Shown: piece by piece, positions 7,952 through 46,619 of the stretch
How positions within the stretch are numbered: position 1 is the stretch's first letter
How the letters are laid out: every line of letters starts with the position of its first letter
Sequence record: DRR378314_235
Length of the DNA stretch: 64,000 nt
Direction: 5' to 3' (one strand)
Position numbers and translations under genes: made by a program
The notes under the pieces: model-generated
The model's input: the letters and a program-made list of their open reading frames with translations, nothing else
Database searches by the model: none
What the model was told of the DNA's origin: nothing

Positions 7952-8001
7952 TCCGCCCGGATCTCAGGATCCAAGAACCGATACGATTAAAGAGGATAAC
8001 C

Positions 8002-8559
8002 ATGCGACGTATTCTGATAGCTCTGAGTCTGCTTTTCACCTTCACGGCCAGCCACGCGAGCAATGTGGAAATTCAGCATGTGTTCGGTTGGATCGAAAAC
8101 GCCACGCTGGAACCCTGGGGCGTGAAAGTGAAAAGCAAACTCGACACCGGTGCCCTCACTTCTTCCCTGCACGCCCGCAACATTGAACGTTTTGAAAAAG
8201 ACGGCGAGGAGTGGGTGCGCTTTGAAGTGAACGTGGAAGACCAGGACGAAGACGAAAAAGTGTCGCGCAAGTTCGAGCGCCCGCTCTATCGCGACGTGAT
8301 CATTCGTGGTGCCGGTGGTGAAGAGCGCCGTCCGGTGGTGCTGATGGAAATCTGCTTCGGCGATACCGTGCACGAAGAGCAGTTCAGCCTGGAAAACCGC
8401 AGCGACATGATCTATCCGGTGCTGATCGGCCGCCGCACCATCCAGCATCTGGGCGTGGTGGACGTGACCAACACCTTCATGCACGAACCGCAGTGCGATG
8501 AAGACAGCCCGGTGGAAAAATTCGACAAGGACAACACCGACGAAGACGTGGGTGTGTGA
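8002..8559 (+). CDS. Exported retropepsin-like protease (RimB / 'ATP-dependent Zn protease' family)
   Basis: Signal peptide, FGWIE, KLDTGALTSSLHA (DTG motif), RRPVV, VLIGRR; AGAGGA RBS. Confidence 0.82.
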   Translation: MRRILIALSLLFTFTASHASNVEIQHVFGWIENATLEPWGVKVKSKLDTGALTSSLHARNIERFEKDGEEWVRFEVNVEDQDEDEKVSRKFERPLYRDVIIRGAGGEERRPVVLMEICFGDTVHEEQFSLENRSDMIYPVLIGRRTIQHLGVVDVTNTFMHEPQCDEDSPVEKFDKDNTDEDVGV

Positions 8560-8609
8560 AGTTTTGAGATCGTCTGTGCTCACTGGTAGCTCGCCTGTAG
8601 GATAGCTTC

Positions 8610-8634
8610 AAACCGCCTTTTGACAGGGGGTTTT
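8610..8634 (+). terminator. Possible intrinsic terminator after the protease gene
   Basis: Imperfect hairpin AAACCGCCT-TTTGAC-AGGGGGTTT with T run. Confidence 0.35.
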
Positions 8635-8699
8635 CTGGTAAATTTGTCTGTGTAGCATCTGAAGGAGTCTGATGAAATCTGCTGTAATCCAGTTCAAGA

Positions 8700-8778
8700 G
8701 TATAGGTTTTGGTATAGCTTTTGGTGTAGGGTTGTGGGCGCCTTAACAAAAAAGGCTGTTGATGATGAAAAGCTATAC
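8700..8778. repeat. Integrase arm-type binding-site repeats
   Basis: Tandem 12-mers GTATAGGTTTTG / GTATAGCTTTTG / GTGTAGGGTTGT (8700-8735) plus inverted copy AAAAGCTATAC (8768-8778), directly upstream of the integrase. Confidence 0.65.
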
Positions 8779-8842
8779 TTATGGCCAGAGCTTCATCAAT
8801 GCCATCGATGGCTATCGTTCCAATCAGTTAATGGATCAAAGC

Positions 8843-10201
8843 ATGCAGAATAACAAACACGGCAACAAGCCACTATCGGCGAGAGCCATCGAGACGATGC
8901 GGCCTGGCGATAAAGTCAAAGTGGACACTGGAGAGAATGCCGGTCTGCGTGTGACTTGCGGGGCTAGCGGTGGCAGGTCGTTCATCTATCGCTATCGGAG
9001 CCCCGAAACGGGCAAGCTAACTCAAGTCAAGATAGGGAATTACCCCTCGATGAGTCTGGCTGAGGCTCGCCTAAAGCTTGCTCGGATGAAGGCTTTACGA
9101 CGAGATGGCGTATGCATTCGTGCCGAAATTCAGCGGGAGAAAGTACGTCAAAGTGCAAAAATTGAACAGGAAAAGGAAGCGGCAGAGGTGGCCGCGTTTA
9201 CTGTTCGTGACTTGGTTGATCTGTACTTAACTGAAGTGATTGAGGATCGACTGGTTGTAAATCGTCGAACTGGGGCTCAGAAACGAGTTCCTGGTGCACG
9301 GAAACCTAAGGGGCAGGCCGAGACTAGGCGCACCCTGTACGGTGATGCTGTACGCACTCTGGGGGATCGATCTGCTGCAGAAGTTCGGCGTAAACATGTG
9401 GTAGAGATGGTGAAGGACATTCTTGACCGGGGAGCAAACGTTCAGGCTGGGAATGTGCTGCGTGAGCTCAGTGCCGCCTACGACTATGCGATTGGCCTTG
9501 GCAAGTTTGATGATGATTTTGCGAACCCGGCTTTGTTGGCAAAGTCGAGCCTGAAGCAGGCTAGAGTCCGACTTACGTCTGTTCGGGGCAAACGCGTATT
9601 GTCCGATGCGGAGTTGAAGGAAGTGTTAGCGTGGTTGCCAGGCTCTGGTTTCTCGGTAACACAAAAGAACGTCATTCGTTTGACTCTGTGGACAGGAGCT
9701 CGCACGGGTGAGGTTTGTAAGGCGCGTTGGTCTGATGTAGATCTCGATCGAGCAGTTTGGCATATGCGAGACTCCAAGAACGGAGCCGAGCGGTATGTGC
9801 AGTTGCCGAGCCAAGCTGTGGCTTTTCTCCGTCAGCTTCGTTTAACCACCAATACCTATCTGTTTCCTTCGAGTCGGACGGGATTGCCGATCCAGCAGAA
9901 ATCGCTTACCGAAACAAAATGGTATTTGAGAAATTCTGCCAAGGCTCGAAGTGGCACCTACTTTAAGCCAGGCCAAGCTTGGCTGGATAGCATTCCTGAC
10001 TGGTCTCCACATGATCTGCGTCGTACGGTTCGCACGGGGTTGTCTCGTTTAGGCTGTCGCAATGAAGTGGCTGAGGCAGTGATAGGGCATTCAAGAAAGG
10101 GTATTGAAGGGACTTATGATCTGCACGATTATGAACCCGAATGTCGCGAGTGGCTGCAAAAGTGGGCTGATCATCTGGAAACTCTTGACGGCGTGTGTTA
10201 G
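8843..10201 (+). CDS. int: Tyrosine recombinase/integrase with N-terminal Arm DNA-binding domain (P4-like)
   Basis: GLRV...RSFIYRYR...KIGNYPSMSLAEAR arm domain; catalytic R (TGARTGE), K (SKNG), HDLRRT, IGH, Y (GTYD). Start could be 8831 or 8759. Confidence 0.93.
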   Translation: MQNNKHGNKPLSARAIETMRPGDKVKVDTGENAGLRVTCGASGGRSFIYRYRSPETGKLTQVKIGNYPSMSLAEARLKLARMKALRRDGVCIRAEIQREKVRQSAKIEQEKEAAEVAAFTVRDLVDLYLTEVIEDRLVVNRRTGAQKRVPGARKPKGQAETRRTLYGDAVRTLGDRSAAEVRRKHVVEMVKDILDRGANVQAGNVLRELSAAYDYAIGLGKFDDDFANPALLAKSSLKQARVRLTSVRGKRVLSDAELKEVLAWLPGSGFSVTQKNVIRLTLWTGARTGEVCKARWSDVDLDRAVWHMRDSKNGAERYVQLPSQAVAFLRQLRLTTNTYLFPSSRTGLPIQQKSLTETKWYLRNSAKARSGTYFKPGQAWLDSIPDWSPHDLRRTVRTGLSRLGCRNEVAEAVIGHSRKGIEGTYDLHDYEPECREWLQKWADHLETLDGVC

Positions 10202-10241
10202 TTGGCATAACCCATCTTAATTTCACAAATTGCAGCAACCG

Positions 10242-10269
10242 GACAGAGAGAAATCTATTTCTCTCTGTC
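10242..10269. repeat. 13-bp perfect inverted repeat between convergent integrase and kinase genes
   Basis: GACAGAGAGAAAT-CT-ATTTCTCTCTGTC. Confidence 0.8.
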
Positions 10270-10363
10270 TCTCTTAGGCTCGCCAGTCCCTGACCTTGCT
10301 GGCCTACGGCCTCCACCGGACGCCTCGATCGGTCCGCTGCTAAACAAAAGCGAACATTCGATT

Positions 10364-11698
10364 TTATCTTAATAATTCGATAGAAACGCGTAAACCGCTA
10401 CAGGACTTAGTCGAAAAGCTGATTTTACCTTCATAGCGAGTCACTATATCTCGAACGATAGCAAGGCCGAGACCGTGCCCAGGTGTTTGCTCATCTAGCC
10501 GCAGACCCCTTTGGCCCAAACTGGCTAAATCCTTGTGATTAACCCCTGGGCCATCATCAGCAACAACTATTCGCTTGAAGCCGCTGCCTTGTTCCACAGA
10601 GAGCTCTACGCATCTCGAAGACCATTTGCCAGCATTGTCGAGTAAGTTGCCCAATACTTCATTTAGATCATGTTCTTCTATCGGCCATCGGCTGTCTTCA
10701 GGCAGAGAACTCGATAGTTCAAACGACTTTTCCGGATATAAACGACCGAGCATCCACAAAAGATCCCGTGCCTGTTTTATGGGGTAGGCGCTTTTTCCAA
10801 TCTGGGGCCCTGCAAAACGGCTTCGACGCATTTCAGCTTCTAATTGCCTGTCGATATCGCTTAGTCGCTCCACCATCTGGCGCCTTAGATTGGTGTCGAG
10901 AGGACGTGTGTCGTCTTCCAGTATCTGCCGGACGGCTGCGATGGGGGTTTTGACGCTATGAGACAGGTTTGCGAGAGCGTCCCTGGAGCGCTCCAGTCGC
11001 TGATCTAAGGAGTCCAGCAACTGATTTAGTTGAAGAACCAGCGGGTGGAACTCCTCTGGCGACTGAACGTTGATTCGGGAGATCTCTCCGTCCTGGAGTC
11101 TTTTTAATGCGGCTTTGAGTGTGACAACCGGTCGCATGGACATCGTGATTCCGAACCAGAGCACGGCGACCAAGAGCATAATCAACAGAACTGATACTAC
11201 GGCGGTCCAGGCATGAAGTGCAGCTTGGCTGCGTTTCAGCGCACCCAGATCTTCAGAAACGATTACGACGATGGGTGTTTCACCGACCTGAAAAGACTTT
11301 CGGTAGGCGAGGATGTCTAAGGGAGTATCAGTGGTTTCGGCATCTTCTACGCGAACGGTTCCGTCTTCTTCGTTTTCAATCAGAGGCGTTAACAAGGGCT
11401 CCCAAGTATCGGGTGAAATGATGGTCTGTTCGGGTGTATGTATGGCAAAGGCATGATGAAAAACATCCTGGAAATAATCGCCCGTCTGGAGAGTGTCAAC
11501 TTCACCATTCGCGTCGCGAATCTGGTGCTCAAGGAAAACGACTTCATCTTTCAGTCGGCTTTCAACGAATTCCCGAGACATTCGGTCGAGCAGCAAGCCA
11601 TGGACCAACCACGCCACCCCCATTAGACCAATTCCGGCGGGCAGTAACAGCGCAAGCAAGGTTCCTTTTACGGACGCAGGCTTTTTAAGGAATCGCAT
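10364..11698 (-). CDS. Sensor histidine kinase (PhoQ/QseC-like subfamily)
   Basis: Two TM helices, HAMP, H-box LSHSVKTP, N-box GNLLDNAGKW, G boxes DDGPG and GHGLGL. Confidence 0.92.
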   Translation of the reverse strand: MRFLKKPASVKGTLLALLLPAGIGLMGVAWLVHGLLLDRMSREFVESRLKDEVVFLEHQIRDANGEVDTLQTGDYFQDVFHHAFAIHTPEQTIISPDTWEPLLTPLIENEEDGTVRVEDAETTDTPLDILAYRKSFQVGETPIVVIVSEDLGALKRSQAALHAWTAVVSVLLIMLLVAVLWFGITMSMRPVVTLKAALKRLQDGEISRINVQSPEEFHPLVLQLNQLLDSLDQRLERSRDALANLSHSVKTPIAAVRQILEDDTRPLDTNLRRQMVERLSDIDRQLEAEMRRSRFAGPQIGKSAYPIKQARDLLWMLGRLYPEKSFELSSSLPEDSRWPIEEHDLNEVLGNLLDNAGKWSSRCVELSVEQGSGFKRIVVADDGPGVNHKDLASLGQRGLRLDEQTPGHGLGLAIVRDIVTRYEGKISFSTKSCSGLRVSIELLR

Positions 11699-12350
11699 TA
11701 AAAATGTACCCCTGGCCGCGTCGTGTTGAGATGGTTTCGCTGCCCACTAGCTTCCTTAACCTCCGAATATACGCCTCAATGACGTTTTCGCTCGGGCTAT
11801 CATTCAAGTTGTAAAGCTGTTCCATTAGTTGTTCTTTGGAAAAGACGTGGCCAGGGCGGCTCATCAAACAACGTAGCAGCCGGAATTCGGTGCCGGTAAG
11901 TGTATGTTCCACGCCGTCGTCCATCTTGAGACTCTGGCGGTTTTCGTCCAGTTCAAAGCGGCCGGCTTTAACCTGAGCATGGACCCTTCCTTCACTTCGA
12001 CGCACGAGTGCGTTGAGGCGTGCGATTAGCTCTTCTGTCTGAAAAGGTTTTGCCAGGTAATCGTCTGCCCCGGCTTTTAAGCCGTTAACCTTATCCTGCC
12101 AATCGCCTCTCGCGGTCAGAATCAAGACCGGACAGCTGACGTGATTCGTTCGCCACTTTCTCAATACGTCCAGCCCGTTGCCATCAGGTAGACCCAGGTC
12201 CAGAACAACAGCACGGTAATCCTCTTGCTCACCCAGAACGACGGCTTCTCGGGCACTGGGAGTTGTATCAACGCTGAAACCTGCTTTTCCCAACTGCCTG
12301 ACCAGACCCTCAGCAAGCAAGCGGTCATCTTCGACGAGCAGTAAACGCAT
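11685..12350 (-). CDS. OmpR/PhoP-family response regulator
   Basis: MRLLLVEDD, LDLGLPDGNG, GADDYLAKPF, winged helix NVIEAYIRRLRKL..TRRGQGY; overlaps the kinase start. Confidence 0.94.
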   Translation of the reverse strand: MRLLLVEDDRLLAEGLVRQLGKAGFSVDTTPSAREAVVLGEQEDYRAVVLDLGLPDGNGLDVLRKWRTNHVSCPVLILTARGDWQDKVNGLKAGADDYLAKPFQTEELIARLNALVRRSEGRVHAQVKAGRFELDENRQSLKMDDGVEHTLTGTEFRLLRCLMSRPGHVFSKEQLMEQLYNLNDSPSENVIEAYIRRLRKLVGSETISTRRGQGYIFNAIP

Positions 12351-12396
12351 GAGTTTTTCCTTCTATGTATGGTCCGCGGTCGAAAGTGTGACTGAT

Positions 12397-12455
12397 TAAC
12401 CTGAATTCAGCCTGAACGGAAAATAGTTCGAGTTTTTCAGAAAGAATTCAGGTTA
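12397..12455. promoter_or_regulatory. Two oppositely oriented direct-repeat boxes (TTCAG-N6-TTCAG) in the divergent promoter
   Basis: CTGAA at 12401 and 12412; TTCAG at 12436 and 12447 (11-bp period); 12-bp inverted repeat TAACCTGAATTC / GAATTCAGGTTA. Confidence 0.65.
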
Positions 12456-12549
12456 GTGAGAGAAGGTAACAACCGATTCTGGACATTGCTCAAGATTGGG
12501 GCTCAATCCTGCAGTGTTTTTCGAGCAATATTTTACAGAGGATAAAAAG

Positions 12550-13083
12550 ATGAATGCATCAAAACTATTCGTAGCGGGTATGGCGCTTTCAATGTCGGCA
12601 ACAGCGTTTGCGGCTGGCGCCCATGATGGTGGCCACGGGCACGGCGCTACAAGCGGTGAACCTGGCAAAGCGTCGGAGGCCAGCCGAACCGTAACTGTCG
12701 AGATGTACGACAACTACTACGAACCCGAAGAAATCAGTGTAAAGCCGGGTGAAACCGTTCGCTTCGTGGTGGAGAACAAGGGAAACCTCGTCCATGAGTT
12801 CAATGTTGGCACTCCCGACATGCACGAAGCTCATCGAGAGGAAATGATGATGATGGTTGAGCATGGCGTCATCCAGGGCGGCAAGCTGAACCACGACATG
12901 ATGAATATGGATATGGGGAATGGCCATTCCATGAAGCATGACGACCCGAACAGCGTGTTGCTGGAACCGGGCCAAAGTAAAGAAGTGGTTTGGAAGTTCT
13001 CTGATAAAGGCAATATCGAATTTGCCTGCAACGTGCCGGGCCACTATCAGGCCGGGATGTACGGTGAGGTCAATTTCGAGTAA
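12550..13083 (+). CDS. Periplasmic cupredoxin (CopI-like) with His/Met-rich segments
   Basis: Signal peptide, HDGGHGHG, HEF...C..PGH..AGM type-1 Cu ligands, MHEAHREEMMMM loop. Confidence 0.85.
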   Translation: MNASKLFVAGMALSMSATAFAAGAHDGGHGHGATSGEPGKASEASRTVTVEMYDNYYEPEEISVKPGETVRFVVENKGNLVHEFNVGTPDMHEAHREEMMMMVEHGVIQGGKLNHDMMNMDMGNGHSMKHDDPNSVLLEPGQSKEVVWKFSDKGNIEFACNVPGHYQAGMYGEVNFE

Positions 13084-13167
13084 CTCGCTTAACTGAGGTC
13101 CGCGAGCGCGGGGCTGAGACACGTTTCTCGGCCCGGCTTCAATGACGTGTAGTTTGGAGCAACACAG

Positions 13168-14877
13168 ATGAAACCACGCTTTTTGACAGGGCTTTTGAGC
13201 CTGCTGATGCCAGCCATGGTTCTGGCCGGCGAATACGACCTTACGGTCGACCGGGTAAAAATTGATACCGGCGATTTTGTGAAGGAAGGCATCGGATACA
13301 ACGGCGCATCCCCGGGACCGGTGATGCGCTTCAAGGAAGGCGAAAACGTCAAGATCAACGTGACCAATAACCTGGATGAGATGACGTCCATTCACTGGCA
13401 TGGGTTGATCCTTCCTTTTGATCAGGACGGTGTACCCGGCATAAGTTTCCCAGGCATCAAGCCGGGTGAAACCTTTACTTATGAATTTCCTATCCAGCAG
13501 GCAGGCACTTACTGGTTCCACAGCCACTCTGGTTTTCAGGAGCCGGATGGCGCCTATGGTGCCATTGTGATCGAACCGGAAAAACGTGAGCCGTTTCGTT
13601 ATGACCGCGAGTACGTGGTGCAGTTGACTGACAAGCACCCCCATTCCGGTGACCGCATCATGCGCAACCTGAAAATGATACCGGATTACTACAACCGTGA
13701 GCAGCAAACCGTGGGGGAGTTTTTTTCGGACGCGTCCAAAAACGGTCTGATGAACACCATTCGGGACCGCATGGCCTGGGGTGACATGCGGATGATGAAA
13801 GCGGACGTTGAGGACTTGCAGGGCTTTACGGGCCTGATCAACGGCAAAGGTCCCGAGCAGAACTGGACTGGCCTTTTTGAGCCCGGAGAACGCATCCGGC
13901 TGCGGTTCATCAACTCCTCGGCCATGACCTACTTCGACATACGGATTACCGGTCTGGACATGACGGTTGTACAGGCCGATGGCAACAACGTTCAGCCCGT
14001 TAACGTGGACGAGTTCCGGATCGGTGTGGCGGAAACCTATGATGTGATCGTCCACCCGAAAGATGAGCAGGCCTACACCATTTTCGCTGAATCCATGGGG
14101 CGTTCCGGCTATGCCAGGGCAACGTTGGCCCCCGAAGAAGGTATGGAAGCGGCTGTTCCGCAACTGCGTGATCCGGCGCGCCTGACTATGGCAGACATGA
14201 GCGGTATGCCCGGCATGGACCATGGCAACATGGCCGGTATGGATCATGGCGACATGGATATGAATAGCTCAGAAGGGATGTCCGGAATGGATCATTCCAA
14301 CATGGAAGGCATGGATCATGGTTCCATGGCGATGGGAAAAGGCGGCCAAAACGACCCCTTTTACGCCAAGGGAAGTGGCCTTGTACCCACGGCAGCCAAT
14401 GGCGGCAAGTTCCTGTCCTATGCTGACCTGAAGGCCCAAGATCCACTGTATGAAGACCGCGAACCGACCCGGGAAATTGAGCTTCGTTTGACCGGCAATA
14501 TGGAGCGTTATACCTGGAGCATTAATGGCGTCAAGTACGAAGACGCAGACCCAATTCGTCTCAAATACGGTGAGCGAGTTCGCTTCAAATTCGTGAACGA
14601 GACCATGATGACTCACCCTATGCACCTGCACGGTATGTGGTCCATTCTCGATGTTGGTGCAGACCAATGGAACCCGATCAAGCACACGGTCAGTGTGCAG
14701 CCAGGCACCACGGTTTACATGGAAACCGAGGTCGACGAGCCCGGTCAGTGGGCGTTCCACTGTCACCTGTCCTATCACGCGGCCGCTGGTATGTTCCGCA
14801 AGGTCATTGTTGAAGGTGGGCCAGAGTCGACGCAGGCCAAAACAGACGTGATTGCCAAAGATGGAGGTGAGGTATGA
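13168..14877 (+). CDS. copA: Copper-resistance multicopper oxidase
   Basis: HWHG, YWFHSH, HPMHLHG, HCHLSYHAAAGM Cu-site motifs; Met/His-rich insert. Confidence 0.93.
   Translation: MKPRFLTGLLSLLMPAMVLAGEYDLTVDRVKIDTGDFVKEGIGYNGASPGPVMRFKEGENVKINVTNNLDEMTSIHWHGLILPFDQDGVPGISFPGIKPGETFTYEFPIQQAGTYWFHSHSGFQEPDGAYGAIVIEPEKREPFRYDREYVVQLTDKHPHSGDRIMRNLKMIPDYYNREQQTVGEFFSDASKNGLMNTIRDRMAWGDMRMMKADVEDLQGFTGLINGKGPEQNWTGLFEPGERIRLRFINSSAMTYFDIRITGLDMTVVQADGNNVQPVNVDEFRIGVAETYDVIVHPKDEQAYTIFAESMGRSGYARATLAPEEGMEAAVPQLRDPARLTMADMSGMPGMDHGNMAGMDHGDMDMNSSEGMSGMDHSNMEGMDHGSMAMGKGGQNDPFYAKGSGLVPTAANGGKFLSYADLKAQDPLYEDREPTREIELRLTGNMERYTWSINGVKYEDADPIRLKYGERVRFKFVNETMMTHPMHLHGMWSILDVGADQWNPIKHTVSVQPGTTVYMETEVDEPGQWAFHCHLSYHAAAGMFRKVIVEGGPESTQAKTDVIAKDGGEV
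14188..14334 (+). repeat. Met/His-rich GMDH repeats within CopA
   Basis: Four GMDH units in MADMSGMPGMDHGNMAGMDHGDMDMNSSEGMSGMDHSNMEGMDHGSMAM. Confidence 0.85.
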
Positions 14878-15623
14878 GCTGTATTCGATCAATTGTCGCA
14901 GTCAGCTTCCTTGCCTCTATTGGTGTCTCAACGGCGGTGACAGCTCAGGAAATGATCTCCGACACGACCGCTCGAAAACAGCCGCTCACAACCTGGGGCG
15001 TTCAATTCGAGGAATTTGAGTACCGCTACAGCGACGATGACGAGGAGCTGGGCGTCTGGAATGCGGATGCCTTCTATGGCACCGACGACTTTAAAGTCCG
15101 GCTGCTCACAACCGGGGAGTACGAGATAGAGGAGCAGGCCTACGAAACGCTGGAAAACCAGCTGGTCGGCCAGATCCCTATCTCCAAGTTCTTCGACGCC
15201 AAAGCGGGCGTGCGTTTCGATACGCCCGAGGGGCCGGACCGTACGTATGCGGTTCTCGGTGTGGCCGGGCTGGCGCCCCAATGGTTTGAGATCGATGCAA
15301 ATCTGTATGTCAGCAAGGATGGCGATACGTCAGCTGAACTCGACGCTGAGTACGAATTGCTGTTCACTAACTACTGGATTCTGGCGGCAACGCTGGATGC
15401 CTCAGTAGCGTTCAGTGAGGATGAAGAGATCGGCGTCGGCAAGGGATTGGTTTCCACCGAAACCGGCCTCCGGCTCAGCTACGACCTGATCGACCGTGCG
15501 TTCTCACCCTACGTGGGTGTGGTGCACGAGCGTAAGTATGGCGATAGCGCCGACCTGGCCGAGGCGGACGGCGGTGGCACAGAAGACTGGTTTGCCGTGA
15601 TCGGCGCTCGAATCGCATTCTGA
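14874..15623 (+). CDS. copB: Copper resistance outer-membrane protein B
   Basis: GVRFD, GLAPQWFE, EYELLFTN, GLRLSY, FSPYVGV, terminal Phe; ATGA overlap with copA. Confidence 0.9.
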   Translation: MSCIRSIVAVSFLASIGVSTAVTAQEMISDTTARKQPLTTWGVQFEEFEYRYSDDDEELGVWNADAFYGTDDFKVRLLTTGEYEIEEQAYETLENQLVGQIPISKFFDAKAGVRFDTPEGPDRTYAVLGVAGLAPQWFEIDANLYVSKDGDTSAELDAEYELLFTNYWILAATLDASVAFSEDEEIGVGKGLVSTETGLRLSYDLIDRAFSPYVGVVHERKYGDSADLAEADGGGTEDWFAVIGARIAF

Positions 15624-15631
15624 TGCTGATA

Positions 15632-15659
15632 GGCCATGGGGAAACCCACGGCCCTTTTT
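15632..15659 (+). terminator. Intrinsic terminator after copB
   Basis: GGCCATGGG-GAAA-CCCACGGCC followed by CTTTTT. Confidence 0.7.
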
Positions 15660-15707
15660 CGTCTATGATTTGATGTAACTCAAATCCACCGAAAGTCTGT
15701 GTCCATT

Positions 15708-15723
15708 GTCAGCCGCAGTTCAG
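15708..15723 (+). promoter_or_regulatory. Direct-repeat box GTCAG-N6-TTCAG
   Basis: Same 11-bp-period motif as at 12436-12451, upstream of the second island operon. Confidence 0.5.
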
Positions 15724-15775
15724 ATTGAAGTGTTTTGATACAGGGAGAAGTCATCAGGAAGAGAGGTGTCACCCC

Positions 15776-16129
15776 ATGACCAAAGCACACAAAGCAACCA
15801 ATCAGGAGCAGTTTTTGTTGCGCCGAAAAATGGCCGTCGAGGGGCTTGGAGAGGATCAGTGGGATGGGCTCATCCACGATCTTAATCGCCACCCCTGCGT
15901 TGATTTCGCCGAGCGTAAGCCAAATGGCACATTGCAGGTGACGTACGACGGAACCCACTGGTCCGTCGATGAATTACTGGAACTGATCAAGGCTTACGGT
16001 GGCCAATTGAAAACCGGATGGTGGACCCGGCGCAAATTGGCTTGGTACCGGGTTACCGACGACAACGTCCGGGCAAATGCCAAGCATGAGCCGTTCTGCT
16101 GTTCCAAGATTCCACCCATGAAAAAATAA
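15776..16129 (+). CDS. Small HMA-fold-like protein with C-terminal Cys-Cys, function unknown
   Basis: GAGG RBS; ferredoxin-like pattern (LQVTYD...SVDELLELIKAYG) lacking CxxC; ends HEPFCCSKIP. Confidence 0.7.
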   Translation: MTKAHKATNQEQFLLRRKMAVEGLGEDQWDGLIHDLNRHPCVDFAERKPNGTLQVTYDGTHWSVDELLELIKAYGGQLKTGWWTRRKLAWYRVTDDNVRANAKHEPFCCSKIPPMKK

Positions 16130-16140
16130 CAGGAGGTTGA

Positions 16141-17496
16141 ATGAACAGGGAGGAAGATCGAACTACCCGCTACCAGGAGGGCAGTCTCACTTTACCAGGG
16201 ACAGTCATGCTGGGTACCGGCGTCATGATTGGCGCCGGTATTTTTGCACTTACCGGGCAGATGGCCCAGATGACCGGTGTCCTTTTCCCGCTGGCCTTTC
16301 TCGCGGCGGCGGTGATTGTCAGCTTCAGCGCCTATTCCTACATCAAGATCTCCAATGCCTACCCGTCCGCCGGCGGTATCGGCATGTACCTGCACAAGGC
16401 TTACGGAAACCGGCTGCCAACGGCTTTCAACGCCCTGTTGATGTACTTTTCCATGGTGATCGCCCAGAGCTTCCTGGCCCGCACCTTTGGCTCTTACACC
16501 ATGCAACTATTCGGAGGGGACGAAAGCGGCCGTATGGTGCCCATTCTGGGGGTGGCATTAATCCTCGTGGCTTTCGTGATCAACCTGCTCGGCAATCGGA
16601 TGATTCAGGGGGTGGCTTCCTTTATCGGGATCCTGAAAATCGGCGGCATACTGATTTTCGGTCTGGTCGGGATCTGGATTGCCGACTCAGTCTCGGTTGA
16701 TTTTTCGGAGCCCGGTGAAGCCGGAGCGCTGGGCAACTTCCTGGGCGCAACCGCACTGGGGATTCTGGCGTTCAAAGGCTTTACGACCATCACCAACAGT
16801 GGTTCGGAAGTAATAGACCCAAAGCGAAACGTCGGGCGCGCCATCGTGATTTCCATTGCCGCCTGCGTGGTGATCTACACGCTGGTGGGCTTCGCGGTCG
16901 CCAGCAACCTGTCACTGGCTGAAATTATCGAAACGCAGGATTACTCCCTCGCTGCTGCTGCGCGTCCCGCTCTCGGCGATTACGGTGTCTGGTTTACTGT
17001 CGCTATTGCCATGATGGCCACGGCGGGCGGTATTCTCGCCAGCGTCTTCGCGGTATCCCGCATGCTGGCGATGCTGACGGAGATGAAGCTCGTACCACAT
17101 CGGCATTTTGGCATGCCCGGCAGCATCCAGAAACACACACTGGTGTATACCGTTGTCCTGGGGCTGATCCTCACCGCCTTCTTTGATCTGTCACGAATTG
17201 CCGCGCTGGGTATCGTGTTTTACCTGATTATGGACATTGCCATTCACTGGGGTGTACTGCGCTATCTTCGCAAAGACATCAAGGCCAACACCTGGGTGCC
17301 AACTACAGCCATCTTGTTGGATCTTTTGGCTCTGGGCGGCTTTGTCTGGGTAAAACTGAATACGGACCCGTTCGTCATCGGCGTGGCAGTGGTCACCATG
17401 ATTGTGCTTGCAGTCTCCGAGCAGATTTTCCTGAAAAGATCGCCGGAATCCGCGCAAGCGAAACAGGAAGAGAGTCACGCGCATCGTCACCATTAA
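16141..17496 (+). CDS. APC-family amino acid permease
   Basis: GVMIGAGIF TM1, YPSAGG, AFKGF TM6, about 12 hydrophobic segments; AGGAGG RBS; C-terminal HAHRHH. Confidence 0.9.
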   Translation: MNREEDRTTRYQEGSLTLPGTVMLGTGVMIGAGIFALTGQMAQMTGVLFPLAFLAAAVIVSFSAYSYIKISNAYPSAGGIGMYLHKAYGNRLPTAFNALLMYFSMVIAQSFLARTFGSYTMQLFGGDESGRMVPILGVALILVAFVINLLGNRMIQGVASFIGILKIGGILIFGLVGIWIADSVSVDFSEPGEAGALGNFLGATALGILAFKGFTTITNSGSEVIDPKRNVGRAIVISIAACVVIYTLVGFAVASNLSLAEIIETQDYSLAAAARPALGDYGVWFTVAIAMMATAGGILASVFAVSRMLAMLTEMKLVPHRHFGMPGSIQKHTLVYTVVLGLILTAFFDLSRIAALGIVFYLIMDIAIHWGVLRYLRKDIKANTWVPTTAILLDLLALGGFVWVKLNTDPFVIGVAVVTMIVLAVSEQIFLKRSPESAQAKQEESHAHRHH

Positions 17497-17523
17497 CCAG
17501 AATCAGGAAGAGAGGCTATTGCC

Positions 17524-17751
17524 ATGATGGGAGATAACATGTTCGGGAACACCATGTGGGCAGGCCACTGGCTGTGGATGCTGGTGATTGCCATTGTGGT
17601 CGTCACTCCGGCCTGGCGTATTTGCCAGCGCACGGGGTATCCGGGGTGGATGGGTGTACTGATACTGATCCCTATCGTCAATCTGGTTCTGCTGTATTTC
17701 ATTGCATTTGCAGACTGGCCCGCCGATAAAACAGGAGATCAGAATGGCTGA
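17524..17751 (+). CDS. Small two-TM membrane protein
   Basis: [12 protein letters not shown]...[21 protein letters not shown] present; overlaps the ATPase start. Confidence 0.7.
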
Positions 17752-20104
17752 GCACCATCACGCCCATGACCACGATCACCACGCCGATAAAGAACCTGGC
17801 GGGCACACCGCCAAGGATCCGGTTTGCGGCATGGCAGTCGATCCGCATACCGCGGAACACCGCAGCCAGCATGGCGGTAAAACCTGGTACTTCTGCTCGT
17901 CGCGTTGCCAGTCCAAATTCGACGAGGACCCTGAGCAGTACCTCGATTGGGAAAAGAAACAGCAAGAGCCGGTAGCGCCGGGCACTATGTATACCTGTCC
18001 CATGCACCCCGAGATTCGGCAGCAAGGGCCAGGGGACTGCCCAATCTGCGGCATGGCCCTAGAGCCCGAGCAGGTAAGCCTGGACGACGGGCCTTCGGAA
18101 GAACTCAAAGACATGACCCGCCGATTCTGGATCGGCCTGGTGCTGGCCCTGCCTGTACTGGTACTGGAGATGGGTGGGCACCTCACCGGACTCGATCACA
18201 TTATAGCCCCGCAGATGTCCAACTGGATTCAACTGGTGCTGGCAACGCCTGTGGTGCTCTGGTGCGGTTGGCCCTTCTTCGTCCGGGGTTGGAAATCCGT
18301 GGTTAGCCGTAACTTGAACATGTTTACGCTCATTGCCATTGGTACCGGCGTCGCGCTGATCTACAGCCTGGTGGCGACCCTGGCGCCGCAGATCTTCCCA
18401 GGCGCCTTCCGGCAGGAAGACGGGTCGGTCGCCGTCTACTTCGAGGCGGCTGCTGTCATCGTGGTGCTGGTGCTGCTGGGGCAGGTGCTGGAATTGCGCG
18501 CCAGAGAGAAAACCTCTGGTGCCATCAAGGCCCTGCTGGATCTGGCACCGGCGACGGCCAGAAAACTGGACGACGATGGCAGCGAATCCGATGTGTCGCT
18601 TGATCAGGTCAAGGTCGGTGACCGCTTGCGGGTACGTCCGGGAGACAAGGTGCCGTTGGACGGCGAGGTGCTTGAAGGCAGCTCCAACGTGGATGAATCC
18701 ATGGTGACCGGTGAGCCTTTGGCAGTCAGCAAAAAATCCGGCGACCAGGTGATCGGCGGCAGTATCAACCAGCAGGGCAGCTTTATCATGCGGGCCGACA
18801 AGGTTGGCCGTGACACCATGCTGTCCCAGATTGTGCAGATGGTGGCGAGCGCCCAGCGCAGCCGCGCGCCCATTCAGGGCCTGGCCGACAAGGTGGCGGG
18901 TTATTTTGTGCCTGCGGTGATCGTGATCGCCATTATCGCCTTTATAGCCTGGTCATTCTTCGGGCCCACGCCGCCTATGGCGTTCGGGCTGATTGCAGCG
19001 GTCAGTGTTCTGATCATTGCCTGCCCTTGCGCACTTGGCTTGGCGACGCCCATGTCCATCATGGTGGGTGTCGGACGCGGTGCTCAAAGTGGCGTTCTGA
19101 TTCGCGATGCGGAAGCCTTGGAGCGTATGGAGAAGGTGGACACCGTGGTGGTGGATAAAACCGGCACGCTGACAGAGGGCAAGCCGCAAGTCACCCGGCT
19201 TGTCGCGGCCAACGGGTTCGATGACAGTAGTCTCATGCGTTATGCAGGCGGCCTGGAGAAAGGCAGTGAGCACCCACTGGCTCACGCCATACTCGATAAA
19301 GCCAAGGGCATGGACCTGAAGCTTCCGGATGCGGAAGACTTTGACTCTCCGAATGGTAAAGGGGTTACCGGTCGAATAGACGGCAAGCGGGTGCTACTTG
19401 GTAACCGCCTTCTCATGGAGTCGGAAAATGTCGACACCACGCGATTTGACGGCGACGCCGACCAGCTCCGAAAAGATGGTGCTACCGTGATTTTTGCTGC
19501 TGTCGACGGAAACGTCGCAGGGTTGCTGGCGATTGCCGATCCGGTCAAGGAAACCACCGAAGCCGCTATTTCCGCGCTGCAAAAAGACGGCATCCGGGTG
19601 GTCATGCTGACCGGCGATAACCGCACTTCAGCTGAAGCAGTTGCCCGAAAACTGCATATCGACGAAGTGGAAGCGGAAGTCCTGCCGGAAGATAAGGGCA
19701 AGATCGTCCAGCGCCTGAAAGACGAAGGCCGTGTTGTCGTGATGGCGGGTGACGGCGTAAACGATGCGCCTGCACTGGCAACGGCGGATGTCGGTGTGGC
19801 CATGGGCACCGGGACCGATGTCGCCATCGAAAGCGCCGGCATTACGCTGCTACGCGGCGACCTGATGGGCATTGTCGAGGCGCGCCGTTTGTCTCTGGCG
19901 ACCATGCGCAATATCCGTCAGAACCTGTTTTTCGCCTTCGTTTACAACTCCGCCGGTGTTCCGATAGCGGCAGGGGTTTTGTACCCGTTTTTCGGGATAC
20001 TGCTGTCGCCCATTTTTGCAGCGGCCGCCATGTCGCTGTCCTCGGTCAGCGTGATCGTGAATGCGCTGCGTTTGAGGGTGGTGAAACTCGGGTCAAAGCA
20101 ATGA
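17744..20104 (+). CDS. Cu(I)/Ag(I)-translocating P1B-1 ATPase with His-rich, YHS and CPMHP domains
   Basis: [67 protein letters not shown] and MSLSS motifs. Confidence 0.95.
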
Positions 20105-20128
20105 ACTTCTGAATCATTGGAGGTAGCT

Positions 20129-20515
20129 ATGTCATACACGATCGATCGAGTTATCAAAGATGTCGATTTCGAGGACGTGGACAGAAGAGCGCGTCAGGCC
20201 CTCACTGATCACGGGTTCGGTGTGCTGACAGAAATTGATGTCAAAGCCACCATGAAGAAAAAGCTGGACAAGGATATGTTGGCCTATCGGATTCTCGGGG
20301 CCTGCAATCCTGGCATGGCCTGGGAAGCCATCGGTGTGGAGCCTCGCGTGGGTGCCATGCTGCCTTGCAACGTTATTCTTCGTGAGGTTTCGGAGGGCAT
20401 TGAGGTAAGTGCAGTGGATCCATTGGCTTCCATGAGCGCCATCGATAATGACGAGCTCAAGCAGGTTGCCGGGAAGGTCAGGGATATGCTCTCTGAGGTT
20501 GTGGAATCGATCTGA
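20129..20515 (+). CDS. DUF302-family protein
   Basis: GFGVLTEIDV, YRILGACNP, GAMLPCNV; GGAGG RBS. Confidence 0.88.
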   Translation: MSYTIDRVIKDVDFEDVDRRARQALTDHGFGVLTEIDVKATMKKKLDKDMLAYRILGACNPGMAWEAIGVEPRVGAMLPCNVILREVSEGIEVSAVDPLASMSAIDNDELKQVAGKVRDMLSEVVESI

Positions 20516-20673
20516 AGCCGGTAGAGGCGTCGATTTGCTGCAGTGCCTGCGGTTTGCAATGGATTAGCGAATTAGCCAGGCGAGCGCATAGCCCAACTGA
20601 ACACTGGAAATGCAAATAGGACTCCTCATTTGACGACGGGATACCTATTTGATGTCAGTCATATTATGGAGAA

Positions 20674-20697
20674 GAAAAAAGGAAAAAAGGAAAAAAG
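20674..20697 (+). repeat. Perfect 8-bp tandem repeat (GAAAAAAG)x3
   Basis: Three exact units ending 2 nt before the ATG at 20700. Confidence 0.85.
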
Positions 20698-20699
20698 AT

Positions 20700-21158
20700 A
20701 TGGATATAAAGACTTTTGGACAACTGATCGACTGGACGCGCGATCTGCACTCACATCTGGCGAGCTGTCTGTCCCATTGCGCAACAAAGCACGAGGAAGA
20801 ACGGGCCCGTGCGCTTTTGGATTATCTGGCAGCTCATGAATCGGAAATAGAGCGGATCGTGAACGAGTTTGAGCACCAAGGGGATAAGAAGGCACTGGAA
20901 ACTCGGGTGTACGACTACCTGTCCCATAATCCGATCAAAACTCATCGAACCTGCGACGAGCCTTACGCGAAGCTTGATTTTGATGGTATCTGCCGGGAAG
21001 TGTTCGACTTTCATGATCAGATTATTGATCTCTACAAAACGCTGATTGGAAAAGCCGAAATTCCAGAAGCAAAAGAGCTGTTCGAATCTCTTTTGGCGAT
21101 GGAGGAAAATGAGTCGATGAGACTGGCTCGTCAGGTTGGCCGAATGCAGGATCTATGA
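20700..21158 (+). CDS. Conserved hypothetical protein, probable ferritin-like four-helix bundle
   Basis: Two helical hairpins with LH / LDYLAAHE and FH..IIDLY / LLAMEENE; His/Cys-rich. Confidence 0.7.
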   Translation: MDIKTFGQLIDWTRDLHSHLASCLSHCATKHEEERARALLDYLAAHESEIERIVNEFEHQGDKKALETRVYDYLSHNPIKTHRTCDEPYAKLDFDGICREVFDFHDQIIDLYKTLIGKAEIPEAKELFESLLAMEENESMRLARQVGRMQDL

Positions 21159-21218
21159 GATCCGAGCACTTTTGCTGACGGCTTAATCCCTTTGAATGTT
21201 TCCAATTGAGGCTCACCT

Positions 21219-22511
21219 TCACACCTCAAAGACGGGCGCAAAGCCACCTCCCGGCGTTCGAAAGTTGGTGGCCTGGCCCTGGTACACACGGGCAGCGGCA
21301 AGCAGATGTTGCCCGGCATAGGTGTACAAACGGATATCGACCTTTCTGGTGGTGACCGTGCCATCCACTCTCAGGGTGCGTTCTCCGGCGGGAACGAAGT
21401 TCTGCGCGATGTAATCACCCTTCAGGATCTCTTCGAAAACGCGGCGGGTTAGTTTTTCGCCCCGATAGACGCCCTTGCTGCCATGGCCCGCTACCGGTTT
21501 GAAAAACAGTTTACGCCGGTTGCTCCACAACTCCGCCTCATCACTTGCTGAAACCAGCCGGGTCTTCGGTACAGCTCTATCCAGAAATCCTGCCTCGGTT
21601 TCACTCAGGCCCCAGTCGCGCAGGGTTTGGGCATCAGATAGCAGGATCAGGTTCCGTTTGTCGGCCATCAGCGCATGGGCGCGTGGATTGGGCGTGACGA
21701 CCGCCGCGCCGTCGAGGTAGGCGCGCCTCAGCGCCCCAAGAGCCGGGGCCTCCAAGGCAAAATCCACCAGGCGGTTGTACACCATGTCAATAGGCTTGCC
21801 GTGGGCGCTCAGGGCACCATCAACATACTCAAGCTCCGATGGGTCGAGGATCAAGGTCTCTATGCCTCTGGCCTGGAATAACTGCTGGGCCAGTTGGAAT
21901 TCCGGGAACATAAACTGGGATTCTGGGGCATCGTCCACAATGGCCAGCCAACCGGGCGTCGAGTCGCCACCTTGCCGTTCCCACTCCTGCTGGAACATGG
22001 CAAACACCGCGTCCTCGAACCCATCCAATGCACGGTTGGTGCCAGCGGTCTGCTGGGACGGGTCACAGCATCGGTGTTGAGCCCGGGCCAATACCGTGTT
22101 CAGAAATGCGCCGCCGGCGTTGGTGTTGATTTCGATCAGCTGAGGCCCGTTCTCGCCCAGGTGAAAGTCGTAGCCCATGAACGCCCCGATGGGGCCTGGA
22201 TCAAAACCGGCGATGTCCGGCGCCCAGGACAGAGCTTTTTCCTTATAGGGCGGAAGCTCGGCTGCGGATTCGATCGCCTGAACAATCCGCTCCATCGTCG
22301 CGATGTCAGCCTGGGGAACAAAAACCGGCGTGTTTGAAAAGAGATGATGGATCTCGGGAGTGGCCGGCGCCTCGTTCCCAGTGTCTGAAAACTGCTTCTG
22401 GAGGCTGTCAGTGAGCGCTTTTCGGTCAAGGGTGATGCAGTAACACTGCCGGTTGAGCTGGTCGGCGTGGGTTTTGGTTGTTCGCTGGTTTTCCTGGGGC
22501 ACGTCTTGCAT
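21219..22511 (-). CDS. Circularly permuted ATP-grasp amide ligase (glutathione/glutathionylspermidine synthetase-like)
   Basis: GYDFH...QLIEINTNAGG, VYNR, ADKRNL, FFKP.AGHGSKG, YIAQ, VDIR, AARVYQGQATNF. Start uncertain (22511-22577). Confidence 0.75.
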   Translation of the reverse strand: MQDVPQENQRTTKTHADQLNRQCYCITLDRKALTDSLQKQFSDTGNEAPATPEIHHLFSNTPVFVPQADIATMERIVQAIESAAELPPYKEKALSWAPDIAGFDPGPIGAFMGYDFHLGENGPQLIEINTNAGGAFLNTVLARAQHRCCDPSQQTAGTNRALDGFEDAVFAMFQQEWERQGGDSTPGWLAIVDDAPESQFMFPEFQLAQQLFQARGIETLILDPSELEYVDGALSAHGKPIDMVYNRLVDFALEAPALGALRRAYLDGAAVVTPNPRAHALMADKRNLILLSDAQTLRDWGLSETEAGFLDRAVPKTRLVSASDEAELWSNRRKLFFKPVAGHGSKGVYRGEKLTRRVFEEILKGDYIAQNFVPAGERTLRVDGTVTTRKVDIRLYTYAGQHLLAAARVYQGQATNFRTPGGGFAPVFEV

Positions 22512-22582
22512 TGGTCGTCCATGGTCATTGTGAATCGTTCCACCTTGATTCTGGTCAAACGAATGCATGTTTCGCAACTGTT

Positions 22583-22598
22583 TTCAGGCCTGTTTCAG
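22583..22598 (+). promoter_or_regulatory. Direct-repeat box TTCAG-N6-TTCAG
   Basis: TTCAG at 22583 and 22594, in the divergent region between the ATP-grasp and beta-propeller genes. Confidence 0.55.
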
Positions 22599-22699
22599 CT
22601 TGGTGTGATGGACTGCCAAGTAATGACCATGCCTGTTCGGGATCTTGCTTACCGGGCGAGGAGATCTTACTGAAACCCTCTGACCAAAAAGGGCACGCT

Positions 22700-23296
22700 A
22701 TGAACCATTCGTTGCGCAAGCAGTGTATTGCTGGTATTACGGCCAGTGTCGCTATGAGTTTTTCGCTGATGGTGGCCGCAGACACGAACCGGGCATTTGT
22801 TCCCATGGGCACAGCGGATGCCGTCGGCGTTATTGATCTGGAAAACCGCAAGGTGACGTCGTCCATTGGCGGCACCCTGAATACCCACGGTTCGGCACTG
22901 ACCCCGGATGGCCGGTATCTGGTGGTGGGTAGTTTGTCGGCGCATGATCGTCAGAAGCCGGTTAGTCGCCCCGAAGGCATTTCAGAAGATGAACACGCCG
23001 CTCATCATGGGGGCGGGAAGTCTACTGAATTGGAAGCAGGGAGTACGGGGCTGCTCTATTTGGTGAACACGGCCACAAAGACGATTGACCGCAAACTGGA
23101 AGTGCCGGGGCCTGTGCACCATGTGCTGGTGACTTCCAACGGTCGCTATGCCGTTTCCACGCATCCTGCCAGTGGCAGTATCAGCGTTGTGGATCTGGAT
23201 TCCGGTCAGTTGGTCAAAACTGTGGCGACGGGGCCGGCCCCCAACTATCTGGTGCAAACCGACGACGGCCAATCCCTTCTGGTCATCGGCGCCTGA
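22700..23296 (+). pseudogene. YncE/YVTN-type exported beta-propeller protein, probably 3'-truncated at the island edge
   Basis: Signal peptide; blades (VGVID, HGSALTPDGRYL, HHVLVTSNGRYA, ISVVDL, TGPAPNY); EDEHAAHH loop; ends mid-blade at 198 aa. Confidence 0.62.
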
Positions 23297-23310
23297 GTAA
23301 ACCAGGCGCC
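23288..23310. terminator. Hairpin at the island right junction / end of the FAA hydrolase gene
   Basis: GGCGCCTG-AGTAAAC-CAGGCGCC between convergent ORFs. Confidence 0.5.
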
Positions 23311-23323
23311 TCACGGGCCGGCG

Positions 23324-24025
23324 TCAGGCCACGCGGGTGAACACCTGCAGGATATTGCCCAGCCGGGCAGTGAGCTTGTCACCGGAGGCCAGCGGGCCGA
23401 CCCCGGCCGGCGTGCCGGTAAAAATCAGGTCGCCGGGCTCCAGCGTGAACACCTGATTGATCTGCGCGATCAGTTCAAAGGTCGGGAACAGCATCTGCCC
23501 GGTATGGCCGTGTTGGCGACTTTCGCCGTTTACCTCCAGAGACACCTCCAGATTCTGCCGCACCGAAATGCCGCGGGCGTCGATAAACCCGGAAACCGGT
23601 GCGCCGCCGTCGAAACCCTTTGCCCGTTCCCAGGGATGGCCTTTTTCCTTTAGCCGGCTCTGCAGGTCACGCAGGGTCAGATCCAGGCCGACCCCGTAGG
23701 CGGCGATGGCGAAGCGAATGGTTTCCAGGTCGGTCTCGCCGCTCAGGCGCTCACCGATCATCACCACCATTTCCACCTCGTGGTGCACCGGGCCCTGTCC
23801 CTGGGGCAGCACCAGCGGTTCGTGCAGGCTGCACAGCGCGGTGGCCGGTTTCATGAACAGCAGAGGTTCCTCGGGCACGTCATTGCCCAGCTCGCGGGCG
23901 TGCTCGGCGTAGTTTCTTCCCACGCAGACGCACTTGCCGAGCGGCATTTCCATGGGCGAGCCGTCGATCCAGCGATGAACGTAGGCGGATTCCGGTCGCG
24001 CTTTCAGCGTGTGGGTATCAAACAT
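23324..24025 (-). CDS. Fumarylacetoacetate hydrolase family protein (YcgM-like)
   Basis: CVGRNYAEH, FMKP, HHEVE, DLTLRD, WERAKGFD, PGDLIFTGTPAGVG. Confidence 0.92.
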   Translation of the reverse strand: MFDTHTLKARPESAYVHRWIDGSPMEMPLGKCVCVGRNYAEHARELGNDVPEEPLLFMKPATALCSLHEPLVLPQGQGPVHHEVEMVVMIGERLSGETDLETIRFAIAAYGVGLDLTLRDLQSRLKEKGHPWERAKGFDGGAPVSGFIDARGISVRQNLEVSLEVNGESRQHGHTGQMLFPTFELIAQINQVFTLEPGDLIFTGTPAGVGPLASGDKLTARLGNILQVFTRVA

Positions 24026-46602: not shown

Positions 46603-46619
46603 GGAACATTACCTTTCTA

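Follow-up and report, generated by a model that had tools for sequence, protein, structure and literature searches.

Two-component systems that respond to copper in Gram-negative bacteria are commonly identified with CusRS/CopRS. The operators of PmrAB/BasRS and PhoPQ, two pairs known from enterobacteria, are direct repeats with an 11-bp periodicity. The present analysis concerns a sensor kinase and response regulator that stand outside CusRS/CopRS, encoded next to copper-resistance genes on a low-GC island in a 64,000-nucleotide stretch of sequence record DRR378314_235 (hereafter the window, with position 1 as its first letter), and a direct repeat, TTCAG-N6-TTCAG (hereafter the box), that recurs in front of the genes of that island.

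CusRS/CopRS-type pairs are often divergent from their target genes and often located on mobile elements, according to the accessible text of PMC11195947, which quotes operators for CopR (CTGACAn5GTAAT), for CusR (ATTCATnnATGTAAT or AAAATGACAAnnTTGTCATTTT) and also for CzcR. In its likely role, that of a periplasmic metal sensor switching on multicopper oxidase and efflux genes, the pair in the window resembles CusRS/CopRS/PcoRS, whereas its kinase and regulator fall on another branch and its operators differ. Copper sensing outside the CopRS family has a precedent in DsbRS of Pseudomonas aeruginosa, which, in the portion of PMC10141476 at hand, is described as controlling disulfide-bond genes and not cop genes.

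The closest described relative is BqsRS/CarRS of P. aeruginosa, an Fe(II)- and Ca-responsive system whose regulator is nearest to that of the window in both of its domains. As described in the accessible part of PMC4358008, BqsR binds TTAAG(N)6TTAAG at a site shared in part with RNA polymerase, and BqsS requires a periplasmic RExxE motif (Arg44) for its response to Fe(II). Like BqsRS, the window system combines tandem pentamers with a 6-nt spacer and an overlap with the RNA polymerase site, and its kinase carries an RExxE motif near the first membrane span, which is here not strictly kept. Unlike BqsRS, it has TTCAG as its half-site and resides on a mobile island. The genes behind the boxes are copper genes, in contrast to the polyamine, lipid A and feo targets listed for BqsR in the available text of PMC4358008 and PMC13522522. 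Moreover, the regulator gene comes first behind its promoter, without the bqsP-like gene that heads the bqs operon. As BqsR/CarR is the closest characterised relative of the regulator and the two boxes differ by one base per half-site, the system can be regarded as a BqsRS-type variant. The reading that is proposed here, to which a probability of about 0.65 is assigned, is that of an autoregulated BqsRS-like pair with a changed half-site that responds to copper and activates a copper regulon on a mobile island.

The direct repeat and its promoter register

All four boxes that an earlier note on this DNA had listed were found in the window at the same coordinates and on the same strands, three of them exact and one with GTCAG in place of the upstream TTCAG. 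Box 1 (TTCAGGCTGAATTCAG, 12401..12416, minus strand, matrix score 41.0) is exact and faces the response regulator gene, as a putative autoregulatory site. Box 2 (TTCAGAAAGAATTCAG, 12436..12451, plus strand, 50.1) is exact and faces the genes copI, copA and copB. Box 3 (GTCAGCCGCAGTTCAG, 15708..15723, plus strand, 29.0), in which the upstream pentamer begins with G instead of T, lies upstream of a gene set encoding a 117-residue protein (hyp117), a permease, a small membrane protein, a copper ATPase and a DUF302 protein. Box 4 (TTCAGGCCTGTTTCAG, 22583..22598, plus strand, 28.8), again exact, faces the gene of a beta-propeller-repeat protein. The scores were obtained by scanning the whole window with a position matrix made from 177 unique exact sites of related loci; since only exact matches entered this matrix, its pentamer columns are invariant by construction and its flanks are the independent information. 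The fifth-best site scored only 2.8, compared with a top score of 7.6 across five shuffled windows, which indicates that the window, scanned incompletely before, holds no fifth site.

Three exact matches to TTCAG-N6-TTCAG in 64 kb compare with a shuffle mean of 0.08, and a count of three was reached in none of 100 shuffles. A much larger excess was found in related loci. These were gathered by scanning a single genome per species with aligned kinase orthologues, which yielded 80 loci, several of them on short contigs; the stretch examined comprised 21 kb around each kinase gene (1,465,333 bp in total). The 80 loci contained 237 exact boxes against a shuffle mean of 2.25 (20 shuffles), an excess of about 100-fold, with 74 boxes directed toward the regulator gene, 74 toward copI and 46 toward hyp117. 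The excess was specific to the pentamer and to its spacing: at a spacing of 6 nt the loci contained one TTGAG repeat and neither TTTAG nor the BqsR-type TTAAG repeat, the latter being absent from the window even with one mismatch allowed, and TTCAG repeats at the other spacings from 3 to 10 nt numbered 1-19.

The copI gene adjoins the regulator gene in 74 of the 80 loci, no upstream gene match being found in five and no regulator match in one, and the 74 intergenic regions comprise 66 distinct ones. The copI-facing box was exact in all 66 regions. The regulator-facing box, which always lies approximately 50 nt upstream of the regulator start codon, was exact in 63, carried one mismatch in two and was lost in one (locus L025). 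Averaged over these regions, column conservation was 99.8% in the pentamers, 86% in the spacers and 68% in the remainder, and 24 and 13 distinct spacers occurred at the two boxes. As the earlier note had proposed, the box thus marks the promoters of the regulator, the copI-copAB genes and the permease/ATPase operon, with pentamers that are kept while the spacers drift.

An explanation of the repeats as chance matches, or as the functionless remnant of a duplication, draws on the count obtained when one mismatch was allowed: the window then held six sites against 2.41 expected, a number reached in 5 of 100 shuffles and weak on its own, and the two additional sites of this kind, at 8072 and 11550, looked chance-like. 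This explanation was refuted by the failure of every shuffle to reach three exact matches, by the pentamer- and spacing-specific excess in the related loci and by the invariance of the pentamers amid varying spacers and flanks. The box is almost certainly a functional cis-element.

Upstream of hyp117, the best box had an exact TTCAG in 46 of 47 loci and shared the G of the window in L013 (Alloalcanivorax profundimaris), so that the G in box 3 represents a point change in a normally canonical site; in strains that carry it, induction of the permease/ATPase operon may be weaker. Box 4 is supported as a genuine member of the set by homologues of the beta-propeller protein (67-68% identical), whose genes in L020 and L022 form part of the hyp117 operon. 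The listed TTG start of orf452, a divergent gene, is 6 nt away from box 4, which faces in the other direction; occupancy of the box might repress orf452. A near-identical box, TTCAGGTCTGTTTCAG, stands beside the orf452 homologue in L020, again facing outward, where the downstream gene encodes a 325-residue multi-pass membrane protein instead of the beta-propeller protein.

A T at +16 after the box, to which the earlier note had drawn attention as the expected last base of a -10 element, is present at all four window sites and at 172 of the 177 unique sites elsewhere. The box ends 10 nt before a conserved -10-like hexamer at +11..+16. This hexamer reads CACACT after box 1 (12385..12390, minus strand; columns 70-100% conserved in the 66 regions), GAAGGT after box 2 (12462..12467, plus strand; A at position 2 and T at position 6 conserved to at least 97%), TTTGAT after box 3 (15734..15739, plus strand), where a preceding TGT resembles an extended -10, and TGGACT after box 4 (22609..22614, plus strand), with TGA ahead of it. 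Each promoter class has its own form, GA(t/a)GGT for copI, CACACT for the regulator and TGTGAT or TTTGAT, often behind TGn, for hyp117, and the flank TGTTGTGAT/TGTTTTGAT recurs downstream of the orthologous counterparts of box 3.

Counting a 17-nt spacer back from the hexamer, the -35 position falls inside the box. A scan for consensus sigma-70 promoters found none at any of the four sites, which fits activator-dependent promoters and is in itself not evidence for them. With exactly 10 nt between it and a weak -10 hexamer downstream, the box would take the place of the missing -35 element, a promoter layout that is read here as that of an activator standing in for the -35 contact.

In the leader of approximately 75 nt 3' of the copI hexamer, the segment AACCGATTCTGGACATTGCTCAAG (12470-12500) was 60-90% conserved in the 66 regions, against an average of 68%. 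A further operator or an RNA element may be present here; a search of Rfam over positions 8000-24000 gave no match at E <= 0.1.

Affiliation of the regulator

The regulator (221 aa, 11685..12350, minus strand) consists of a Response_reg domain (PF00072, 91.5 bits) and a Trans_reg_C domain (PF00486, 73.6 bits), which places it in the OmpR/PhoB class. Its best curated models in NCBIfam were those of PmrA (206.5 bits, cut-off 330) and PhoP (181.9 bits, cut-off 336), and the PhoQ model was the best match of the kinase (165.5 bits, cut-off 497, covering residues 125-440 and hence the cytoplasmic part only); all three scores remain far below the equivalog cut-offs. Comparison with solved structures gave a closer neighbour. 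The receiver domain matched CarR/BqsR (8gc6) with 125.3 bits over 121 residues and approximately 53% identity, as counted from the alignment. The DNA-binding domain matched CarR/BqsR (9yfa) with 70.1 bits and approximately 45% identity, the next chain scoring 39.6, PmrA 37.7 and PcoR 34.6 bits. The best full-length solved match was BasR (148 bits). Closeness to CarR is here a ranking among solved structures, for which no curated cut-off exists.

One conceivable explanation is that the pair belongs to the ordinary CopRS/CusRS systems and that its operator has diverged, and its divergent orientation relative to the copper oxidase genes does recall the cusRS-pcoA2 and copRS loci described in the accessible text of PMC11195947. 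Its curated scores argue strongly against such an assignment. On the copR/silR model TIGR01387 the regulator scored 155.1 against a cut-off of 279.2, and this model ranked ninth, after PmrA, PhoP, TctD, QseB and others. The kinase scored 85.1 against 292.55 on the CusS/CopS/SilS model TIGR01386 and 39.4 against 423 on the Cu/Ag model PRK09835. The DNA-binding domain was likewise much closer to CarR than to PcoR. None of the published CopR, CusR and CzcR operators occurs in the island; TGACAN5GTAAT with at most one mismatch had a single occurrence in the 64-kb window, at 46608, which lies beyond the island and corresponds to chance (1.11 expected, with one mismatch). An ordinary CopRS/CusRS system is accordingly a very improbable explanation. 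By regulator placement and curated models, the pair appears to belong to the branch of BqsRS/CarRS and PmrAB. The earlier note's description of a new, non-CusRS system thus held in that the pair lies outside CusRS/CopRS, with both proteins below the curated cut-offs; it had overlooked the relationship to BqsRS/CarRS, so that the pair is not unrelated to known systems.

The changed half-site has a possible counterpart in the protein. The recognition helix has the sequence N(V/I)IEAY(I/V)RRLR in 78 of 78 orthologues, compared with NVIEVHVNHLR in CarR. The Tyr and the following Arg occupy the places of BqsR His194 and His197, which are reported to lie on the DNA-facing helix of BqsR, with Arg211 of the hairpin as a DNA anchor, in the available part of PMC13522522. 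In the window regulator the beta-hairpin TRRGQGY, with the Arg equivalent to this anchor, is kept. The replacement of His194 and His197 by Tyr and Arg may explain why the half-site has C where that of BqsR has A. The regulators of Halomonas have the related helix NL(V/I)EVY(V/I)ARLR.

More distant relatives were found on plasmids. A megablast search of positions 10364-15623 against plasmids gave no match, and a protein search found kinases with 49% identity in Hydrocarboniclastica and 36-37% identity in Halomonas and Vreelandella. The Hydrocarboniclastica plasmid keeps cupredoxin, copA and copB divergent from the pair, together with both boxes in exact form. In the Halomonas plasmids the genes follow one another on one strand, in the order cupredoxin-regulator-kinase-copA-copB, and an exact box precedes the cupredoxin gene, with TATAAA or TATAAC at +11..+16. 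A further box lies upstream of copA, and the three Halomonas plasmids L082-L084 have more of them, ahead of copC and between other genes. That the box follows the pair through such deep divergence and through rearrangement of the operon is the strongest argument that the regulator of the pair binds it.

The box could alternatively be bound by a regulator encoded elsewhere, with the neighbouring pair controlling other genes or merely modulating these. The survey viewed 21 kb around each kinase gene, and binding by the neighbouring regulator is deduced from association, both of which leave some room for such a regulator. Against it, the box travels with the pair into six genera, where the island is near-identical, onto plasmids with kinases of 36-49% identity and across the change from divergent to co-linear gene order; it stands at the promoter of the pair itself in 63 of the 66 distinct regions, and its architecture equals the published box of the closest characterised relative. 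Control by a distantly encoded regulator is thus considered quite improbable, and the neighbouring regulator very probably binds the box, as judged from sequence association.

Other exact boxes in the related loci suggested a wider set of genes. They preceded genes for Met-rich periplasmic proteins (8), a 94-residue secreted protein (4), a 152-residue protein (2) and a TolC-type efflux protein (2). Two boxes stood before a second heavy-metal P-type ATPase homologue, which is 56-57% identical to that of the window and assigned to its family by homology only. In three loci (one of them L046, 998-1642, minus strand) a gene for an ECF sigma factor whose C-terminal tail is rich in Cys lay behind an exact box, which suggests that some relatives have a regulatory cascade.

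The kinase and its signal

The sensor histidine kinase (444 aa, 10364..11698, minus strand) has two predicted membrane spans that flank a periplasmic domain of about residues 37-163, and the H-box LSHSVKTP. The His cluster FHHAFAIH in its periplasmic part, which had been noticed before, corresponds to residues 80-87. Its first three residues (FHH, 80-82) were conserved without exception among the 80 orthologues and the four plasmid homologues, whereas H87 was unconserved. In wider relatives (30-34% identical) the place of FHH is taken by SGHYY, in which the second His (H82) alone is kept; within FHH, only H81 would then be special to the narrower clade.

The kinase also carries REFVE at residues 42-46, near the first membrane span. 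This matches the RExxE that BqsS needs for its response to Fe(II) (R44), in the sections of PMC4358008 available, and it stands at nearly the same position. The same module and the same box might thus be combined with a kinase that senses ferrous iron, some other divalent cation, or a stress of the envelope or redox type that accompanies copper toxicity, the copper genes being switched on indirectly. The nearest solved relative of the regulator, BqsR/CarR, is in line with such a signal, as are two orthologous kinases that are named CarS in public records and that provide the sole hint of orthology between the kinase and BqsS. Conservation of the motif argues in the other direction. Strict RExxE occurs in only 62 of the 80 orthologues, the Arg being replaced by Q, W, K or T in six and the first Glu by D, Q or N in 13, and the Halomonas kinases have RDFLGE in its place and hence no RExxE, whereas FHH is constant throughout. 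According to the same partial source (PMC4358008), BqsS with Ala or His in place of this Arg almost or completely lost its response. In addition, the targets whose family is known are all copper-handling or metal-efflux genes. A signal other than copper is therefore regarded as unlikely. The constancy of FHH, together with the lax RExxE, would favour a His-based copper site over a BqsS-type Fe(II) site, and the His-His pair may bind copper.

Structure prediction of the sensor domain (residues 30-170) gave a model with a pLDDT of 84.7, in which five strands stand between a long N-terminal helix and a C-terminal one, a PAS/PDC-like order. Comparison of the model with the PDB gave no match at E <= 0.001. 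At weaker E-values, the sensor domains of CzcS (E 0.011), CpxA, WalK and CusS (E 0.054) were matched with E-values of 0.01-0.05 and TM-scores of 0.34-0.49. Look-alikes of the sensor part in the ESM Atlas carried 2CSK_N or CusS labels at similar scores; they were too ambiguous and were not used.

Besides the built-in invariance of the matrix pentamers, a number of points weigh against the proposed copper-responsive BqsRS-like system. Binding of the box by the regulator and induction by copper rest on association, and the promoters are predictions whose -10-like hexamers match the consensus poorly. The box counts overstate the number of independent events, because orthologous sites share descent; this effect is mitigated by the variation of the spacers and by the rearranged operons of Halomonas. 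H82 need not be a copper ligand, because it is kept in the wider relatives with SGHYY, and the near-coincidence of RExxE with the Fe(II)-sensing position of BqsS points to a signal other than copper. The fold of the sensor domain gives no clue to the ligand, because it is of a generic PAS/PDC type and without a PDB match at the threshold. Copper as the signal is the weakest link of the chain, for which the nature of the target genes argues.

In the proposed mechanism, the kinase would detect periplasmic copper, with participation of the invariant His81-His82, and phosphorylate the regulator. A dimer of the regulator would then bind the direct repeat TTCAG-N6-TTCAG and, with the box in the place of the missing -35 element, recruit RNA polymerase, as reported for BqsR. 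Through box 1 the pair would positively regulate its own operon, and the same wiring would serve copI-copA-copB, the operon of hyp117, the permease, the small protein, the Cu-ATPase and the DUF302 protein, and the beta-propeller gene.

A more far-reaching scenario, given a little less than an even chance, concerns the origin of the system. The pair would represent an undescribed copper-sensing lineage that arose from the Fe(II)-sensing BqsRS type. A switch of the operator from TTAAG to TTCAG, accompanied by the His-to-Tyr and His-to-Arg replacements, would have insulated it from the resident BqsR regulon, and a new periplasmic His-His site would have been gained. The lineage would then have been disseminated in marine gammaproteobacteria, its sensor, operator and resistance genes moving together as one portable unit.

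The island, its mobility and its meaning

The GC content of the window is 51-58% over about 8000-23300 and 60-68% outside, and the borders of the island were set by GC content alone. At its left edge lies a gene for a tyrosine integrase with Phage_integrase and arm-binding domains (8759..10201, plus strand), which follows the kinase gene. No tRNA gene was found in the 64-kb window, and no convincing flanking direct repeats at the ends of the island.

That the genes behind the box are copper genes, as had been assumed, was borne out by the curated models. The first gene after box 2 encodes a CopI-type cupredoxin (12550..13083, plus strand; Cupredoxin_1 and Copper-bind domains), which scored 193.2 bits on the CopI model, under its cut-off of 280. 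It is followed by the genes of the multicopper oxidase CopA (13168..14877, plus strand), which passed the cut-off of TIGR01480 (684.3 bits, cut-off 478.95), and of the outer-membrane copper resistance protein CopB (14874..15623, plus strand; PF05275, 224.7 bits, cut-off 27). After a gap of 150 nt between CopB and hyp117, the first gene behind box 3 encodes hyp117 (15776..16129, plus strand), which ends in ...EPFCCSKIPPMKK, has the conserved C-terminal end ...HEPFCCSKIPPMKK and gave no match in Pfam or NCBIfam. The subsequent genes encode the APC-family (amino-acid-type) permease (16141..17496, plus strand; AA_permease_2, 103.9 bits), a small membrane protein of 75 aa (17524..17751, plus strand; annotated as an open reading frame) and the copper P1B-type ATPase with N-terminal YHS and HMBD domains (17702..20104, plus strand; TIGR01511, 624 bits, cut-off 397), the true start of which is likely the ATG at 17744. 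They are followed by the DUF302 gene (20117..20515, plus strand; PF03625), by a gene for a 152-residue protein, by orf452 (452 aa, 21219..22577, minus strand), with faint, below-threshold ATP-grasp matches, and by the beta-propeller-repeat gene behind box 4 (198 aa, 22700..23296, plus strand), with weak matches to propeller families.

A 14-nt stretch, ATCAGGAAGAGAGG, occurs in identical form at 15753-15766 and 17502-17515, ahead of the starts of hyp117 and of the 75-residue protein, and is probably a common ribosome-binding region. In 49 of the 80 loci the copper operon includes the permease of amino-acid type, placed between hyp117 and the Cu-ATPase, and an APC permease is also found near the copper cluster of Halomonas pTHAF12_b. 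Elsewhere in the window, an open reading frame of 2180 aa extends over 52110-58652 on the minus strand.

Gene content was compared across the 80 loci. The regulator was present in 79, CopI in 74, CopA in 69 and CopB in 66, and the second operon was found less often (small membrane protein 50, permease 49, hyp117 48, ATPase 44, DUF302 33). In 17 loci (L001-L016 and L049), from records titled Alloalcanivorax, Alcanivorax, Halopseudomonas, Pseudomonas abyssi, Marinobacter and a Methylococcales metagenome-assembled genome, the kinase was 97-100% identical to that of the window; in the remaining 63 loci, mostly from Marinobacter, identity was 67-89%. The near-identical kinase in records of six genera indicates that the island moves between genera. 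In these 17 loci the regulator, like the kinase, was 97-100% identical, whereas CopA, CopB, hyp117 and the permease were 81-94% identical (for example in L002 and L004) and the ATPase was again 100% identical. This mosaic of identities suggests recombination among variants of the island.

No description of the box or of the pair was found in the open-access literature and bioRxiv, and subscription journals may hold one. The part of a review (PMC10141476) that was available makes no mention of PhoQ, PmrA or CopI. Surveys of copper resistance in marine bacteria would miss a system of this kind, because they counted homologues of CusRS/CopRS only, and the pair adjoins copAB in most of the 80 loci (from Marinobacter, Alcanivorax, Halopseudomonas and others) and is found on plasmids of Halomonas and Hydrocarboniclastica. 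The regulon of the pair can readily be defined by the 16-nt box and its constant distance from the -10 element, and through the box hyp117, the APC permease, the DUF302 protein and the small beta-propeller protein become candidate copper genes. BqsR and the regulator of the window, close relatives whose boxes lie one base apart per half-site, would be well suited to studies of how OmpR-class proteins read DNA. For the bacteria that acquire it, the resistance island would bring its own insulated switch from one genus to another.

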